A program made the translations under genes and the position numbers. DNA of 64,000 nucleotides from IMG/VR virus record IMGVR_UViG_3300015262_000002, positions 39,828 through 103,827 of that record; one strand, 5' to 3'. The stretch comes from a virus (taxonomy: Duplodnaviria; Heunggongvirae; Uroviricota; Caudoviricetes). The notes under the pieces are model-generated. The model did not search any database, was not told the DNA's origin, and worked only from the letters and a program-made list of their open reading frames with translations. Below, piece by piece: positions 1,515 to 39,843 of this stretch. The stretch's first letter is position 1; each line of letters opens with the position of its first letter.

Positions 1515-1590
1515 GCCGTTATAGCTCAGTTGATAGAGCGCCTGTTTTGTAATCAGGATGTCCGTGGTTTGAATCCTCGTGACGGCACCA
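1515..1590 (+). tRNA. tRNA, probably Thr (TGT). It has T-T mismatches in the anticodon stem and the T stem.
   Basis: Acceptor GCCGTTA/TGACGGC, D-arm GCTC-AGTTGATA-GAGC, anticodon loop TTTGTAA, and CCA encoded. Confidence 0.5.
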
Positions 1591-1910
1591 AATTCTATGT
1601 TGAAAGTAGAAAACTACCACAGGTTGACCAACGTGGGTTAATAGTAGAATAGGATAAACGTACAGCCTATTATTGGAAGCCAAATTCGTATAAATGCTAT
1701 TCGACATAAGTCAACAATAGCGAACGGGGTATACGCCCCATTATGTGAGATAACATTATTGTGGTTTCAATTGCCACACGGGGCTGGTCCTCGTATCGAG
1801 GGGAAGTAATGGTAAGCTCAACAGGTATTCAACTTTCGATACTAGTCAGACTGTTGTGTACCGGATCTAATTCAAACAAGCTTGAGAATATCGCTTGTTA
1901 AATGTAACAT

Positions 1911-5402: not shown

Positions 5403-6923
5403 ATGGCAGAAAACGCCGAAAACACAACCTCCTTGAAACAAGGAGACTCCAAAGCTCCTGCGATTGTATACGGTGAGACTGGTTACACTGGTCTTGTCAC
5501 TCTTGGTGGACAAGTGTTTGACGATTGTAAACACGAACTACGTTGGCCCCATGCATACAAGACATTCAAAACAATGTCTGTCGATGGTTCTGTTGGACCA
5601 GCTCTAGAGTTTGTCGAAGGTAAAGTAGCTGAAGCCACATGGAGTGTAAAGATTCCAAAGGGTGTTCCTAAAGAACGTGAAGCTACTCTAAAAGCTCAAC
5701 AGAAATACCTCACCGAAGTAATGGACGACATGCGTCACAGTTGGACAACCGGTATTAAAAACGCTGGTACATTCAACCGTTACGGGTTTAGCGTTCTTGA
5801 AATGGTACTTCGCTTCCGCAATTACAAATATGGTAGTAAGTTCAATGATGGTCTGGTGGGGATTGAAGCCCTTTCACCACGTAGTCAAGGAACTATTGTC
5901 CAGTGGTATTGGAAAGATAAAGGTCGTGAACTGGATGGTTTCGATCAACGCATCGTAATCCCAAGTGAAAACAGTATGATTAGTACTGATGGTTGGGAAG
6001 TTATGCGTACTAGTGCCTTACAAGAGACTGGTGTCAAATACATTCCGATGAAGAAGTGCTTGCACTTCCGTCACAATCCTCAGAACGATAGTCCTTCTGG
6101 TACATCTCCTTTGGTGTCTGCATATCAACCATGGAAGATGAAACAAGCTTACCAAGAGTCTGAAGCAATTGGTGTAGCACAAGACAACAACGCCTTCAAG
6201 ATCCTGTTCCTTCCACCTGAGTATCTTGTAGAAGATCGTGACGCTGACCGCGAAGCATCTTTCAACATGTACACTCGAATGATGGAACGAGCACACCAAG
6301 CAAAACAAAGTGGGTTTATCCTACCAATGTTGCTTGATAGTGACGGTAAGAAGATGTTTGACTTTGAGATTAAGAATATCTCAGGTACGAAGTCTTATGA
6401 TGTTAATAAAATCATCGAACGATATGTGCGAGAGATTCAAGTTGCTCTCTTCGCTGACGTATTGTCGCTCGGTAGTGGTTCTGGTGGTAGTTACTCACTT
6501 GCTGAATCGAAAGTAAGCATTATCGACATGGCTGTAAAGAGTCGTTTGAATGAAATCAAAGACCAGCTTAATCATAAGCTTGTTAAGACGTTGTTTGAAC
6601 AGAATTCATGGCCTACTGATGTAATGCCTTACATTGACTTTGATTTACCTAACAGTGAGTCATTGGAGAGTGTTGGTAAATATCTACAACAAGCAGCTGC
6701 TGTTGGACTTATCCCATTGGTTCCTGAAGTTGTTAACTTTGTCCTTGCTCGTGTCGGTATTGATTATCGAGTTCCTGATGACACACCTACTGAGAAACTT
6801 AGAGAAATGATGACAAGTTTTGTCTCCGAAGCTGGGGGCGGAATGAAATCTGGACTCAACGGGAGTAACGGAAAAGGAACAGGTTCTAAAGGTGATCCAA
6901 ACACAGCAAACAAAGGGAGTTAA
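5403..6923 (+). CDS. portal protein
   Basis: A 506-aa ORF directly after TerL, in the lambda-like order. Confidence 0.8.
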   Translation: MAENAENTTSLKQGDSKAPAIVYGETGYTGLVTLGGQVFDDCKHELRWPHAYKTFKTMSVDGSVGPALEFVEGKVAEATWSVKIPKGVPKEREATLKAQQKYLTEVMDDMRHSWTTGIKNAGTFNRYGFSVLEMVLRFRNYKYGSKFNDGLVGIEALSPRSQGTIVQWYWKDKGRELDGFDQRIVIPSENSMISTDGWEVMRTSALQETGVKYIPMKKCLHFRHNPQNDSPSGTSPLVSAYQPWKMKQAYQESEAIGVAQDNNAFKILFLPPEYLVEDRDADREASFNMYTRMMERAHQAKQSGFILPMLLDSDGKKMFDFEIKNISGTKSYDVNKIIERYVREIQVALFADVLSLGSGSGGSYSLAESKVSIIDMAVKSRLNEIKDQLNHKLVKTLFEQNSWPTDVMPYIDFDLPNSESLESVGKYLQQAAAVGLIPLVPEVVNFVLARVGIDYRVPDDTPTEKLREMMTSFVSEAGGGMKSGLNGSNGKGTGSKGDPNTANKGS

Positions 6924-30246: not shown

Positions 30247-31431
30247 TTAGTCTTCCTTAATTAAAAATCGGTTCGATATCACTTTAAAGCTAAAGTCACG
30301 ATTGATTGCTTTGTATACCCAACCTTCTCTCATTTTACCATTCAAACCGCTTGGTCCATCAGCATCTTCAATTGCATCTACAACTGTTGCTGGGAGAGTT
30401 ACAATACCAGCTGATGGTACAGCCTGCAAGTTGTATTTTGCAATTAGCTCAACTCGCTCTGCTGGCAACAAATACTTCTGTTTGTCAATATCAAAGATAT
30501 CATAGATGTAAAATTGGTTAGACTTGACACCTTCGAAGTTCTTCTGAATGCTTGGACCAACCATCTCACCTTGGATTGCAAGGTTACAGTTCAGGCGTAC
30601 AAGCGCATCAGTAACACCAGAGTTCTTAGCCATTTGAGTGAAAGCATTGTTATCTGGTTCAAGTTGTGTTACGAGCTTAGCATGACGGAATCCATGTTTC
30701 TTAACTTGTTTGACGTAATCACGGAACGATTGAACAAAACCTTTGTTCTCAACTTGCATACGGAACGACACATTACGAGAAGCAACGCCCAACACACTGT
30801 CTTTCAGCCAAACAGTCATAGAGCTACCGTCAAGTTTGAATGTCTTCTCAAACAGTTCACCATCTGTAACAGACTGCAAGTAACGAGGAACAATGTTCTG
30901 CACACGGTTCTGGTCAGTCTTTGGAATGAACGATGGGAATGGTTTAGTAGTACGACTTTTAACACCGTCGGAAGTACCAGCGTTATTCATTGAACGCTCT
31001 TCACCCTTCTCATACTTCAGGATACCGAGAGTCTTGGTAAAGTCCATATCAACATCACAAGTTGGACTTGCGTTGACTTCCGAAAGAGGCACACAGAAAC
31101 CTTGTGACAAATGTTTCATCAACTTTGCTGTTTTGATACGAGCATAACCACGTCCATCAATCTCAAACAACAGTTTAGAACTAAGACGATCGGCTAGTTC
31201 TGCAAATGCAGGATGTGCGGTTGGAAGTAGAGAATCAACTTCGAAATACATGCACTTGTTACCAGCAGTGTACAACCCTTTACCCACAACTACTTGCCAA
31301 CCACCGATGAGAGCCAGTTCAATGCGATCTGCCCCAGAAATTGGATGAAGTGAATCAATTTGTACAACACGAGCCAGTTTACGGTCACTCATTATATTCT
31401 CCATTTTGTTTATCAATTGCGTCTTGAACAA
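30247..31431 (-). CDS. ATP-dependent ligase-family nucleotidyltransferase, most likely an RNA ligase (DRB0094-like)
   Basis: Motif I is KLDGSS, motif IV is EGWVYK and motif V is FKVISNRFLIK. The N-terminal domain reads RVVQIDSLHPISGADRIELALIGGWQVVVGKG. Confidence 0.6.
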   Translation of the reverse strand: MFKTQLINKMENIMSDRKLARVVQIDSLHPISGADRIELALIGGWQVVVGKGLYTAGNKCMYFEVDSLLPTAHPAFAELADRLSSKLLFEIDGRGYARIKTAKLMKHLSQGFCVPLSEVNASPTCDVDMDFTKTLGILKYEKGEERSMNNAGTSDGVKSRTTKPFPSFIPKTDQNRVQNIVPRYLQSVTDGELFEKTFKLDGSSMTVWLKDSVLGVASRNVSFRMQVENKGFVQSFRDYVKQVKKHGFRHAKLVTQLEPDNNAFTQMAKNSGVTDALVRLNCNLAIQGEMVGPSIQKNFEGVKSNQFYIYDIFDIDKQKYLLPAERVELIAKYNLQAVPSAGIVTLPATVVDAIEDADGPSGLNGKMREGWVYKAINRDFSFKVISNRFLIKED

Positions 31432-36792: not shown

Positions 36793-37116
36793 GTGGCGTA
36801 TCGTAAGCTTGAAGTGAAAGATGTTGTAAAGGTTAGTAAATACGGTCATGAAAACCATGGTATGTTTATGGTAGTTGAATATGTGAGTGGTGATTCGGTA
36901 AGACTAAACAACCAAGAGTGGTTTTACCAGAAAGACTTGTTGTTGTCTGTTCACGAGAAGGTTGAGGATTATGAGGCTTGGTTGAAACGTTTCGACAGCC
37001 TTGATAGTGAAGATCTAAACTTTCCTGACAATGAAGAGTTGTACAAAGGTAATTTGCTTGAACGGATTGTAAAACTCGAACAAGAAATTGTTGACTTGAA
37101 GAAACGACTAACGTAG
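36793..37116 (+). CDS. hypothetical protein with a C-terminal coiled coil
   Basis: ORF with a GTG start. Confidence 0.4.
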   Translation: MAYRKLEVKDVVKVSKYGHENHGMFMVVEYVSGDSVRLNNQEWFYQKDLLLSVHEKVEDYEAWLKRFDSLDSEDLNFPDNEELYKGNLLERIVKLEQEIVDLKKRLT

Positions 37117-37287
37117 ACTTCACCAACTCAAACAACAACTTACCATTAGGGGATATTTGTGGAACAGTCTTTGAAAGCAATGCAGGAACGTAATGTACAA
37201 CGTGAAAATGATTTGCGTGTGATGGCTACACTTGTTGACCAACTTGCATTGATTCCCAACGAGTTTAAAACAAAACGAAAATAAAGC

Positions 37288-37316
37288 TTGACGATGTATA
37301 CCAACCTCTGTATAAT
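37288..37316 (+). promoter_or_regulatory. sigma70 promoter, TTGACG-N17-TATAAT, driving the tRNA-like RNA
   Basis: Hexamers were read from the sequence. Confidence 0.5.
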
Positions 37317-37330
37317 TGGTGACATAAAAA

Positions 37331-37494
37331 GACACGGTGATGGAATTGGTAGACAGACTGGAGGATTCAGTATAAGGTGACAGTTACTGATGATACCGGG
37401 GTGATTCACAGGTAAACGTCCTGTAAGGTTAGCTTTAAGCACAACAGTGAAACGTACTGTGTAGCATGTGGGTTCGACTCCCACCCGTGTCACC
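37331..37494 (+). ncRNA. 164-nt tRNA-like RNA
   Basis: A perfect 7-bp terminal acceptor stem (GACACGG/CCGTGTC), a Leu-type D-loop (GGAATTGGTAGAC), and a canonical T-arm (GTGGG-TTCGACT-CCCAC). An internal ~80 nt contains two near-identical hairpins. Confidence 0.5.
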
Positions 37495-37644
37495 TTATTT
37501 AAAACAGATGGAGAGCTTCTGTGATCAAGTTTAAACCACTCCGAATGGAGTATGGATGTAAGCGTTGTGGTAGTAGCTTCCTTTGCGTCTGTGATTGACA
37601 CAGAGCTTCGCAAACATTAAATTTTAAAACACTAGGAGAAACAC

Positions 37645-38553
37645 TTGAAAATTAGCAATCTGATCAAAGCTTCCGCACTATCACTGGCTGCAACACTCAT
37701 GGTTGGTTGTGGTGAGCGAGTTGAAGTACCACCGGGTTTTGTTGGCAAGATCATGACGAAGGATGGTTATCAAGAAGGTTTGATTCCGACTTCGAAACTT
37801 CGGTTGTCACCATGCATGAACTACTGTGATCGAATGGTCATCATGGACAACACGGATAAGAGCTATGTCGAGCCAATGGAAATCTTCATTCCAGCTGACA
37901 AGCTGAACATCAAGGTTGACCTTCGTGCTACTCTGGCTGTTGATCCACAACGTGCTGAGCCTTTGTTCAACAAGCTTCCACAGGTTACACAAGGTGATCA
38001 ACTGTCAGTAATCTCTGGTGAGAGTATCTACAACACTTACGGTAAGCAGGTGCTGCAAGCTGAAGTTCGATCTTATCTGACCAAGTACACCATTTCGGAA
38101 ATTGCTTCCAATGGTGAGAAGATCAACGCTGACATTCAAGTACTGTTGTCGAAAGTAATGGGTGACCGTACACCGTTTACTGTTCGATATGCTGGTCTGA
38201 CTAACATCAAGTATCCAGAAATCATTACTCAGGCTCAAGAGAACAGTGCAAAACGTCGCGAAATGATTGCTCAGGAAGAAGCACAACTGGAAGTAAGTAA
38301 GGTTCAGCTGTCTCGTGAACTGCAAGAAGCTAAAATGCAACGTGCAATTGACAAAGAGAAAGCTGAGACTGAAGCACAAGCACAACTTGTACTGGCAGCT
38401 GCTGTAGATCCACGATCCTTGCGCATCAAAGAGCTTGAGATTGAAAAGATCAAAGCTGAAGCTTGGGATGGTGCATACCCTAAAACAATGGTTTTCGGTA
38501 GCAATGGTCAAGGTGCTTCGATGATTATGGACATGCGTGACAACAGCAAGTAA
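37645..38553 (+). CDS. SPFH (band-7/prohibitin/HflKC-like) domain lipoprotein
   Basis: TTG start with an AGGAG SD. A signal peptide ends in lipobox LMVGC. An SPFH-like core is followed by an Ala/Glu/Gln-rich coiled-coil C-terminus. Confidence 0.55.
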   Translation: MKISNLIKASALSLAATLMVGCGERVEVPPGFVGKIMTKDGYQEGLIPTSKLRLSPCMNYCDRMVIMDNTDKSYVEPMEIFIPADKLNIKVDLRATLAVDPQRAEPLFNKLPQVTQGDQLSVISGESIYNTYGKQVLQAEVRSYLTKYTISEIASNGEKINADIQVLLSKVMGDRTPFTVRYAGLTNIKYPEIITQAQENSAKRREMIAQEEAQLEVSKVQLSRELQEAKMQRAIDKEKAETEAQAQLVLAAAVDPRSLRIKELEIEKIKAEAWDGAYPKTMVFGSNGQGASMIMDMRDNSK

Positions 38554-39598: not shown

Positions 39599-39843
39599 AA
39601 TACGTAGTTGTTCGAAATGAAGACGGTAAAGAAGAGTTTTTCATGTTCCCGAAACATATCAACCATGATGACTTCGCTGAAGTACTGAGCCACATCAAAG
39701 TGCATACCGGTTTCCGTGACTGGGAACGTCAGTATCGAGAACCTATTGCTGCGGGCTTCACAGATGGTAAGAAGTGCACAGGTTGTAGTGAAACACTTAA
39801 CCTCGACTCTCGTGGTCGTCTTGATGAAATGTTGATAGGGTGA
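39595..39843 (+). CDS. hypothetical protein
   Basis: ATGA overlap with the upstream gene. Confidence 0.45.
   Translation: MKYVVVRNEDGKEEFFMFPKHINHDDFAEVLSHIKVHTGFRDWERQYREPIAAGFTDGKKCTGCSETLNLDSRGRLDEMLIG

Follow-up and report, generated by a model that had tools for sequence, protein, structure and literature searches.

Why would a phage keep, behind a promoter of its own, a gene that has the two ends of a transfer RNA (tRNA) and no recognizable anticodon arm between them? The question is raised by an element at positions 37331-37492 of the window, our term for the whole 64,000-nucleotide (nt) stretch of Caudoviricetes DNA analysed here (positions 39,828 to 103,827 of IMG/VR record IMGVR_UViG_3300015262_000002). 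We show that the element is a structured, promoter-proximal, anticodon-less gene, derived from tRNA-Leu and conserved in a family of nine members in which base pairing is maintained by compensatory changes. As to its function, we consider it somewhat better than an even chance that the RNA, having arisen from a phage tRNA-Leu, would act as a non-decoding mimic of that tRNA and engage a tRNA-binding factor.

Anatomy of the element

The RNA, which is 164 nt long with the terminal CC counted, and its promoter are composed of the following parts.

37288..37316, plus strand: sigma-70-type promoter, with TTGACG at 37288-37293, a 17-nt spacer and TATAAT at 37311-37316
37331..37337, plus strand: 5' strand of the acceptor stem, GACACGG, in perfect pairing over 7 base pairs (bp) with 37485-37491
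37338..37357, plus strand: U8, G9 and the Leu-type D arm AUGGAAUUGGUAGACAGA, bearing A14, A15, G18, G19 and A20a
37358..37399, plus strand: redesigned 'anticodon' arm, on which covariance-model alignment and RNAalifold concur
37358-61 with 37396-99, plus strand: lower stem CUGG/CCGG of the redesigned arm
37362-66 and 37391-95, plus strand: symmetric internal loop AGGAU/UGAUA with tandem G·A
37367-72 with 37385-90, plus strand: upper stem UCAGUA/UACUGA of the redesigned arm
37373-84, plus strand: apical loop UAAGGUGACAGU of the redesigned arm
37400..37467, plus strand: variable region of 68 nt, ending with U48 at 37467
37408-37424, plus strand: hairpin ACAGG-UAAACGU-CCUGU, ACAGGTAAACGTCCTGT
37444-37460, plus strand: hairpin ACAGU-GAAACGU-ACUGU, ACAGTGAAACGTACTGT
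37468..37484, plus strand: T arm GUGGG-UUCGACU-CCCAC
37485..37494, plus strand: 3' strand of the acceptor stem, CCGUGUC (37485-37491), followed by A73 (37492), CC (37493-37494) and then U

The promoter scores 11/12 in a consensus promoter scan and is separated by a 14-nt gap from the 5' end of the RNA, with the transcription start predicted about 7 nt 5' of the first base. Within the D arm, ATGGAATTGGTAGACAG occupies 37340-37356 (RNA form AUGGAAUUGGUAGACAG, preceded by UG). The 3'-terminal CCA is only partly encoded in this copy, as CC followed by U. The promoter, 7-bp acceptor stem, Leu-type D-loop, T arm, discriminator and CC that were listed in the preliminary description can all be read directly in the sequence, and its two near-identical internal hairpins are present as described. 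The two-hairpin motif has just these two matches in the whole window; we considered the hairpins as an operator repeated across the phage and rejected this, no further copy being present.

The window copy contains no 5-bp stem with a 7-nt anticodon loop bearing U33/R37. The earlier failure to place a canonical anticodon arm here is matched by the standard tools: ARAGORN with default settings calls seven ordinary tRNAs elsewhere in the window and nothing at the element, and an Rfam scan of the window returns no tRNA at the element even at E<=10.

A family of related RNAs

By protein similarity, the window phage, from an ENA metagenome contig of 103.8 kb, groups with the Otagovirus / Felix-O1-like Pseudomonas phages (Boevelstad, vB_PseuGesM_254, KIL1, phiPMW). 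With blastn, none of 50,697 phage genomes matched the region of the element. The first homologue was found by an exact-word scan of IMG/VR, as a 105-nt copy at 5439-5543 of a contig designated L005, with which the window has 29-nt and 11-nt cores in common. Exact and gapped core-pattern scans of IMG/VR, JGI metagenomes and GTDB genomes returned only L005 and chance matches in coding sequences. The L005 phage has proteins 35-64% identical to those of the window and a colinear genome that carries the element at another position; at the position of the window syntenic with the L005 copy, no second copy was found and open reading frames (ORFs) occupy the site. Five of the seven acceptor pairs of L005 differ from the window on both sides, and there are differences in its T stem and inner hairpin too. 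Folded alone, L005 forms a cloverleaf with a lengthened anticodon arm (z=-3.2), and a covariance model built from L005 only recovers the window element at 69 bits (E=3.5e-17).

Further members were reached through the DNA around the closest SPFH-protein homologues in ENA and Logan assemblies, where the L005-only model detects copies upstream of the SPFH gene in L018, L019, L020, L021, L022 and L024 (57-88 bits). An IMG/VR scan for the apical-loop motif gave 12 loci, one of which, L156, is a true member. The family now comprises nine members of 105-162 nt on metagenomic phage contigs: the window, L005, L018, L019, L020, L021, L022, L024 and L156. Relatives of the L018 and L024 types stem from Pseudomonas metagenomes associated with food. 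With the family model, R2, members score 100-122 bits (window 100) and the 5'-truncated L156 scores 81.5, with ordinary class II tRNAs at 40-67.

Neither tRNA models nor databases capture these RNAs. The Rfam tRNA gathering score (29 bits) is not reached by L018, L019 or L005. In a blastn search of phage genomes at E<=10, the L005 copy shows only a T-arm likeness to tRNAs; its 3' half resembles annotated phage tRNA-Leu genes. No natural phage RNA built in this way was found described in the literature searched, and the family is also not in Rfam. We propose it as a new family, the GA-loop tRNA-Leu-like RNA of Otagovirus-like phages, defined by a Leu-type upper half, a 4-5 bp stem, a symmetric xGAU/UGAx loop, a covarying stem, a GAAA variable arm or an expansion of it, and an upstream promoter. 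The window has every one of these features. Judged by its sequence relatives, the element is a small RNA gene that is conserved within one group of phages of Pseudomonas type.

Conservation of the RNA structure

All members have the 7-bp acceptor stem, U8, G9, a UUCRANU T loop, U48 and A73. The D arm, AUGGAA(U/G)UGGUAGACA, is invariant across the family apart from U16/G16. Five of the seven acceptor pairs show double compensatory changes across the family, and the T stem covaries (GC/AU, UA/CG/AU). The arm that replaces the anticodon arm consists in every member of a 4-5 bp stem, a symmetric internal loop, a 6-9 bp stem and an apical loop. The internal loop occurs as AGGAU/UGAUA, AUGAU/UGAUC and CGAU/UGAC, with a constant GAU/UGA that places a tandem G·A beside U·U. 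The sequence of the 6-9 bp stem varies freely and its pairing is maintained. In the SPFH-linked members the apical loop reads (U)A(C/A)GGUGACAGU and folds as a 7-nt GGUGACA loop closed by two pairs; the consensus ACGGUGACAGU, also found as (A)CGGUGACAGU, is conserved in most members. We rejected the idea that the GA loop is a classical K-turn or box C/D motif, as the loop is symmetric (5x5 or 4x4) and has no 3-nt bulge.

When eight sequences are aligned with the model, every one of the 217 pair cells holds a standard pair, compared with 36-47% in slid controls. Changes on both sides are found in 18 of the 30 pairs, and none of 500 shuffles reaches any observed measure. Because this alignment was fitted to the model, the test was redone with plain MAFFT and RNAalifold on five members of similar length, which gave the same helices with 18/28 pairs covarying. 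Selection acts on the RNA structure. An overlapping minus-strand ORF of 155 amino acids (aa) and small plus-strand frames were considered as coding sequences and rejected on account of the 55- and 45-nt insertions or deletions, the covariation and the lack of conservation of the frames.

This pattern bears on the possibility that the element is a decaying, functionless tRNA-Leu pseudogene with insertions. Such a view would be in line with the silence of the tRNA finders, with the several close relatives that have no such element and with the existence of other aberrant tRNA-Leu-like genes at related loci (L060, L030, L100). However, compensatory changes occur in every helix with not one of the 217 pair cells broken, the 29-nt core has stayed identical between phages whose proteins have diverged to 35-64% identity, the promoter is conserved, and the insertions lie in loops only. 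A degraded pseudo-tRNA without conserved structure in related phages, named at the start as an outcome that would refute the observation, is countered by the fully paired cells and compensatory changes in the relatives. We strongly disfavour decay and regard it as very improbable.

The enlarged interior

The preliminary description reported one unexplained internal insertion of about 80 nt. The extra length is there, but it is the sum of two features: the family-wide redesigned anticodon arm, which is about 25 nt longer than normal, and an enlargement of the variable arm, by about 55 nt, that is specific to the window. In the members other than the window, the variable region measures 13 nt and consists of a 3-bp stem with a GAAA tetraloop. 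The expansion, which holds both hairpins, is absent from the near-identical L018 and from all other members; the two hairpins are a private embellishment of one phage and are not conserved. L020 has 45 extra nt in its apical loop, again showing GAGGUGAU in a hairpin loop. Both insertions, the 55 nt of the window and the 45 nt of L020, fall within loops.

An extra-long interior could also mark an intron-containing, decodable tRNA, either an ochre suppressor tRNA(UUA) or a tRNA-Leu spliced with the help of the phage RNA ligase. The searches suggested earlier were ARAGORN with intron models and Infernal/Rfam. ARAGORN is silent at the window element with default settings, as is Rfam, and also with introns allowed at the unrelaxed threshold; at 80% of the threshold (-i -ps80) it calls a tRNA-Stop(tta) with a 69-nt intron. 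An RNA ligase is encoded by the phage (30247-31431), and there are phage tRNA-Leu genes that carry group I introns or, at the anticodon loop, small hairpins (L032, L120, L108). Yet the anticodon stem of the relaxed call has only 3/5 good pairs and lies in the window-only insertion that is missing from all eight relatives. The flanks of the arm, CUGG-AGGAU...UGAUA-CCGG or GCUGA-CGAU...UGAC-UYGGU, do not, in any member, come together as a loop of 7 nt bearing U33/R37, and an anticodon loop is not recovered by any deletion. An insert of 25-70 nt falls short of the size of a group I intron, none of which is found in the element by Rfam, and the stems of the supposed insert covary like a permanent structure. 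The intron explanation is disfavoured and, in our estimate, has still less chance than decay.

Origin from tRNA-Leu

The D-arm 18-mer TGATGGAAKTGGTAGACA occurs at more than 120 loci of IMG/VR, and ARAGORN calls about 100 of these tRNA-Leu (anticodon UAA, CAA or UAG; 81-89 nt). As the element has this 18-mer in common with about 100 tRNA-Leu genes and the family model scores such ordinary class II tRNAs at 40-67 bits, its sequence identifies it as a derivative of a phage tRNA-Leu gene, that is, of a class II tRNA with a long variable arm.

Related aberrant genes retain the same body. At the same site between promoter and SPFH gene, L060 carries an 83-nt orthologue (1578-1660, minus strand) whose acceptor, D and T parts are nearly the same; its interior is different and decayed, with a CCUAAUAC loop and U73. 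Two further promoter-proximal tRNA-Leu-like genes, L030 6268-6394 and L100 2803-2909 on related contigs of about 100 kb, have a normal upper half and a non-canonical interior. All three stay below the Rfam tRNA threshold. What is constant across L060, L030, L100 and the family is the upper half and elbow.

Other unusual Leu-type genes were seen in the course of these scans. L108 5928-6039 is a 112-nt tRNA-Leu(UAA)-like gene in a phage tRNA cluster, with a hairpin of about 30 nt at the anticodon loop and an Rfam tRNA score of 40 bits. In four IMG/VR loci (L032, L120, L142, L080), tRNA-Leu(UAA) is split after the anticodon U by long group I intron-like inserts. L062 and six other IMG/VR loci have Leu-type class II bodies of 87-106 nt with a GUU (Asn) anticodon; ARAGORN assigns six of these (87-89 nt) to tRNA-Asn and makes no call for L062 (106 nt). 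To judge by their sequences, such tRNAs might insert leucine at Asn codons, or the assignment may be mistaken.

Genomic context

Every family member has a near-consensus TTGAC-N17-TA(T/G/A)(A/G)AT promoter 8-24 nt upstream. In the window, the RNA is followed by the gene below, which is given as context only.

37645..38553, plus strand: SPFH/Band_7 lipoprotein gene (PF01145)

The element does lie upstream of this gene, as first described, but not immediately so, as 150 nt separate the two. In L019 the SPFH gene begins 25 nt after the RNA, and RNA and gene are therefore co-transcribed there. The gene downstream of the L005 copy is a 91-aa ORF and not SPFH.

This arrangement supports the main rival to a function in trans. 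The element could be a cis-acting 5' leader or processing module, in which a signal for RNase P and RNase E (or Z), or a protective 5' structure, sets the 5' end and lifetime of an early mRNA and the freed RNA has no function. All members directly follow a promoter and precede ORFs on the same strand. In L019, L005, L030 and L060 the ribosome-binding site of the next ORF lies within about 20-30 nt, leaving no room for a terminator, and no terminator-like site is present between the window element and the SPFH gene. That CCA is not encoded would also fit a leader. On the other hand, the invariant positions of the type recognized by leucyl-tRNA synthetase (LeuRS), namely A73, A20a and A15-U48, would be superfluous in a processing signal, and the conservation of the GA internal loop and the 11-nt apical loop would be left unexplained. 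The downstream gene also varies, being SPFH in most members and the 91-aa ORF in L005, and there are relatives that carry the SPFH gene without the element. In the window itself, 150 nt and a promoter-like site matching at 10/12 positions (37595-37623) intervene before the SPFH gene. We consider this explanation unlikely on balance, although it is the strongest competitor to the mimic.

The 150-nt spacer of the window (37495-37644) contains a long imperfect hairpin at about 37567-37612 in addition to the 10/12 promoter-like site; in most relatives the spacer to the SPFH gene is much shorter. Upstream, at the end of a 107-aa ORF, the window has at 37091-37119 a weakened copy, TTGACT-17-TAGACT, of the element promoter of L018, L022 and L024. 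This copy is followed by about 170 extra bases with a 41-aa ORF (37159-37284) and then by the second, stronger promoter.

The ordinary tRNA genes of the window form a cluster at 964-2281 (Met, Gly, Asn, Asp, Thr, Pro, Ser), and the element lies outside it. All seven encode CCA, followed by AA. ARAGORN finds no tRNA-Leu within the 64-kb window. About 6 kb from the element, 30247-31431 on the minus strand encodes a 394-aa protein with an RNA ligase domain (PF09414) and a PHA02142 OB-fold, which is also present in relatives without the element. Its domain content suggests a capacity for RNA or tRNA repair.

A proposed non-decoding tRNA-Leu mimic

Among the alternatives offered in the preliminary description, a tRNA mimic or a new structured small RNA (sRNA) fits best, in the form of a tRNA-derived RNA of Leu type without an anticodon arm. 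The element retains the acceptor stem, D arm, T arm, D/T elbow, the U8-A14 and A15-U48 positions, the variable arm and A73. The RNA cannot decode, for it has no anticodon and the arm in that place is about three times as long as usual.

RNase P and 3' maturation act on a 7-bp acceptor stem that stacks on a T arm where the D/T elbow is intact, and A/U-rich trailers such as CCUUAUUUAAAA and CUUAAUUUAAAC are typical substrates of RNase E and exonucleases. In the pathway that we envisage, host RNA polymerase would transcribe the RNA early from its own sigma-70 promoter, in most cases at the head of an mRNA. RNase P would cut its 5' end, and RNase E with exonucleases, or RNase Z, would free the 3' end. 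A73 is invariant in all nine members and the sequence after the stem is ACCU, ACUU or ACUC, so that CCA is not encoded and a CCA-adding enzyme would be needed to complete the 3' end. The matured RNA could then act as a tRNA mimic barred from decoding. It would engage a host or phage tRNA-binding factor: it could lure or sequester, as a decoy or sponge, an enzyme or toxin directed against tRNA, or it could serve as a Leu-tRNA outside the ribosome. The GA loop and apical loop may provide a second, specific binding surface. The early-type sigma-70 promoter and the position among small early genes, off the tRNA cluster, would fit a host-directed role.

In E. coli, LeuRS depends on A73, A15-U48, G18G19, A20a and the D/T-loop tertiary pairs, and the anticodon and long variable arm are dispensable (PMC9976931). 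A73, A15-U48, G18G19, A20a and U54/U55/C56/A58 (U54-A58, G18-U55, G19-C56) are invariant in the members with complete sequence. As these determinants are invariant and LeuRS does not need the anticodon arm, it is plausible that the RNA is a substrate for leucylation. More specifically, and with considerable reserve, we suggest that a chargeable, non-decoding tRNA-Leu mimic might serve as an early effector that absorbs a tRNA-directed defence toxin through its acceptor end, elbow or long variable arm, or that diverts leucyl-tRNA chemistry, with the GA and GGUGACA loops recruiting a partner. This specific version is possible rather than probable.

Several observations weigh against the mimic. 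That CCA is not encoded, compared with the seven CCA-encoding tRNAs of the same window, argues against simple use as a tRNA and weakens the idea of aminoacylation. No partner protein is evident from the gene context, the neighbours of L005 being different from those of the SPFH-linked members, and L005, the most divergent member, has a CAAC loop in place of GGUGACA. The unconstrained fold of the window RNA is not more stable than that of shuffled sequence (z=-0.74), and enforcing the conserved helices gives -45.8 kcal/mol, 1.6 above the unconstrained optimum of -47.4; the window sequence alone therefore leaves the question unsettled. The element is also absent from the whole genomes of Boevelstad and Ep020, which have ordinary tRNAs only, from L023 and L025 in the 3.9-kb SPFH-flanking loci searched, and from vB_PseuGesM_254, in which only the SPFH-flanking locus was searched. 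The spacer 5' of the SPFH gene is too short to hold it in Boevelstad, vB_PseuGesM_254 and vB_PpS_SYP. The element is dispensable, since close relatives do without it.

The conserved apical loop admits a different function in trans, that of a base-pairing or ribosome-directed sRNA built on a tRNA scaffold. Here the GGUGA(C/U)A loop, together with GGAGG in some members, would mimic a Shine-Dalgarno (SD) sequence and base-pair with a host mRNA or the 16S rRNA 3' end, the tRNA body providing stability and processing. GGUGA is present in the apical loop of eight of the nine members, and GGAGGAU in the internal loop of the window, L018, L020, L005 and L156. The insertion in L020 re-presents GAGGUGAU, which is complementary to 8 nt of the anti-SD region when compared with the generally known 16S rRNA 3' end. 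In most members, however, the complementarity amounts to just 5 nt, the L005 loop is CAAC, and L024 and L019/L021/L022 have no GGAGG. The plus strand of the window contains no target complementary to the loop. We also considered that the apical loop might pair within the molecule with the 3' end (UGUCACC), to which it is complementary, and rejected this; the pairing is not maintained as the acceptor changes in L156, where U71 becomes C and the loop is unchanged. A pairing sRNA seems to us distinctly less probable than a cis leader.

A short reading frame suggests yet another function. About 9 nt beyond GGUGA, the SPFH-linked members have an AUG, formed from the stem end and UGA, and the window frame reads M-I-P-G-stop (37373-37395). 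Along with the tRNA-like body without an anticodon, this is what a miniature rescue or tagging RNA resembling transfer-messenger RNA (tmRNA) might show. The frames after the AUG differ in phase and in length (4 to 26 codons), though; they cross the T arm, and L005 and L020 have no such frame. C3-G70 is invariant, so that there is no G3·U70, and the D arm, which tmRNA lacks, is complete. ARAGORN in tmRNA mode and Rfam detect no tmRNA at the window element. Of all the explanations weighed here, this disfavoured one has the least to recommend it. The non-decoding tRNA-Leu mimic is the reading that we retain for the comparisons that follow.

Comparison with known systems

What is new is a tRNA-derived, tRNA-like phage RNA with this architecture; the broader kind, tRNA-like RNAs, is known. 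Neither Rfam nor the annotated relatives examined include the family. It also demonstrates that standard tRNA finders overlook a class of tRNA-derived phage genes. A length of about 105 nt, a promoter of its own and natural variants that have or lack the element make this a small and easily tested family.

The closest relative is tRNA-Leu itself (class II, RF00005). Like it, the element has a 7-bp acceptor, U8, G9, the D arm of about 100 phage tRNA-Leu genes, a long variable arm (3 bp and GAAA), a UUCRANU loop and A73. Unlike it, the element has a tandem-GA arm of at least 42 nt in place of the 5-bp stem and 7-nt loop of the anticodon arm, does not encode CCA, falls below the Rfam and ARAGORN thresholds and lies off the tRNA cluster behind its own early promoter. 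That the tRNA-Leu body and LeuRS determinants were kept and the anticodon lost points to a use of the tRNA shape outside translation.

RNAC and RNAD of phage T4 end in tRNA-like acceptor structures. They are small stable RNAs of unknown role from the T4 tRNA region and are tied to tRNA processing (PMC3014915, PMC9697503). Likened by description, they and the element are phage-encoded small RNAs linked to tRNA genes. In contrast to the element, which has its own sigma-70 promoter in an early-type region, RNAC and RNAD are assigned to the late class and are located within the tRNA cluster.

The tRNA-like domain of tmRNA is similar in having a tRNA-like acceptor and T arm, no anticodon and tRNA-style processing, which for the element is predicted. 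The element differs in its full Leu-type D arm, in the absence of G3·U70, pseudoknots and a conserved tag frame, and in its size of 105-162 nt compared with about 360 nt.

A precedent for a chargeable, non-decoding substrate comes from minimalist constructs of E. coli tRNA-Leu. In the part of the work of Larkin et al. 2002 that is covered by PMC9976931, such tRNAs without anticodon and variable arms were still leucylated. The constructs and the element both keep A73 and the D/T-loop tertiary pairs and have no anticodon. However, the constructs are laboratory-made and the arm is deleted, whereas the element is a natural gene in which the arm has been elaborated and charging is predicted only.

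Phage tRNAs have come to occupy a central place in the conflict with defences that cleave or modify tRNA. Some are known to counter host defences: tRNA-Tyr of T5 counters a retron and tRNA-Lys of T5 counters PARIS (bioRxiv 10.1101/2023.03.15.532788; PMC11455837). These and the element are phage-encoded molecules of tRNA type, and a part for the element in such a conflict is our proposal. The T5 molecules are decoding tRNAs that replace cleaved host tRNAs, whereas the element has no anticodon, and therefore only the role of a decoy or sponge would be possible for it in a tRNA-directed defence conflict. Known phage tRNAs in conflict with tRNA-cleaving or tRNA-modifying defences all decode; the family described here gave up the anticodon.

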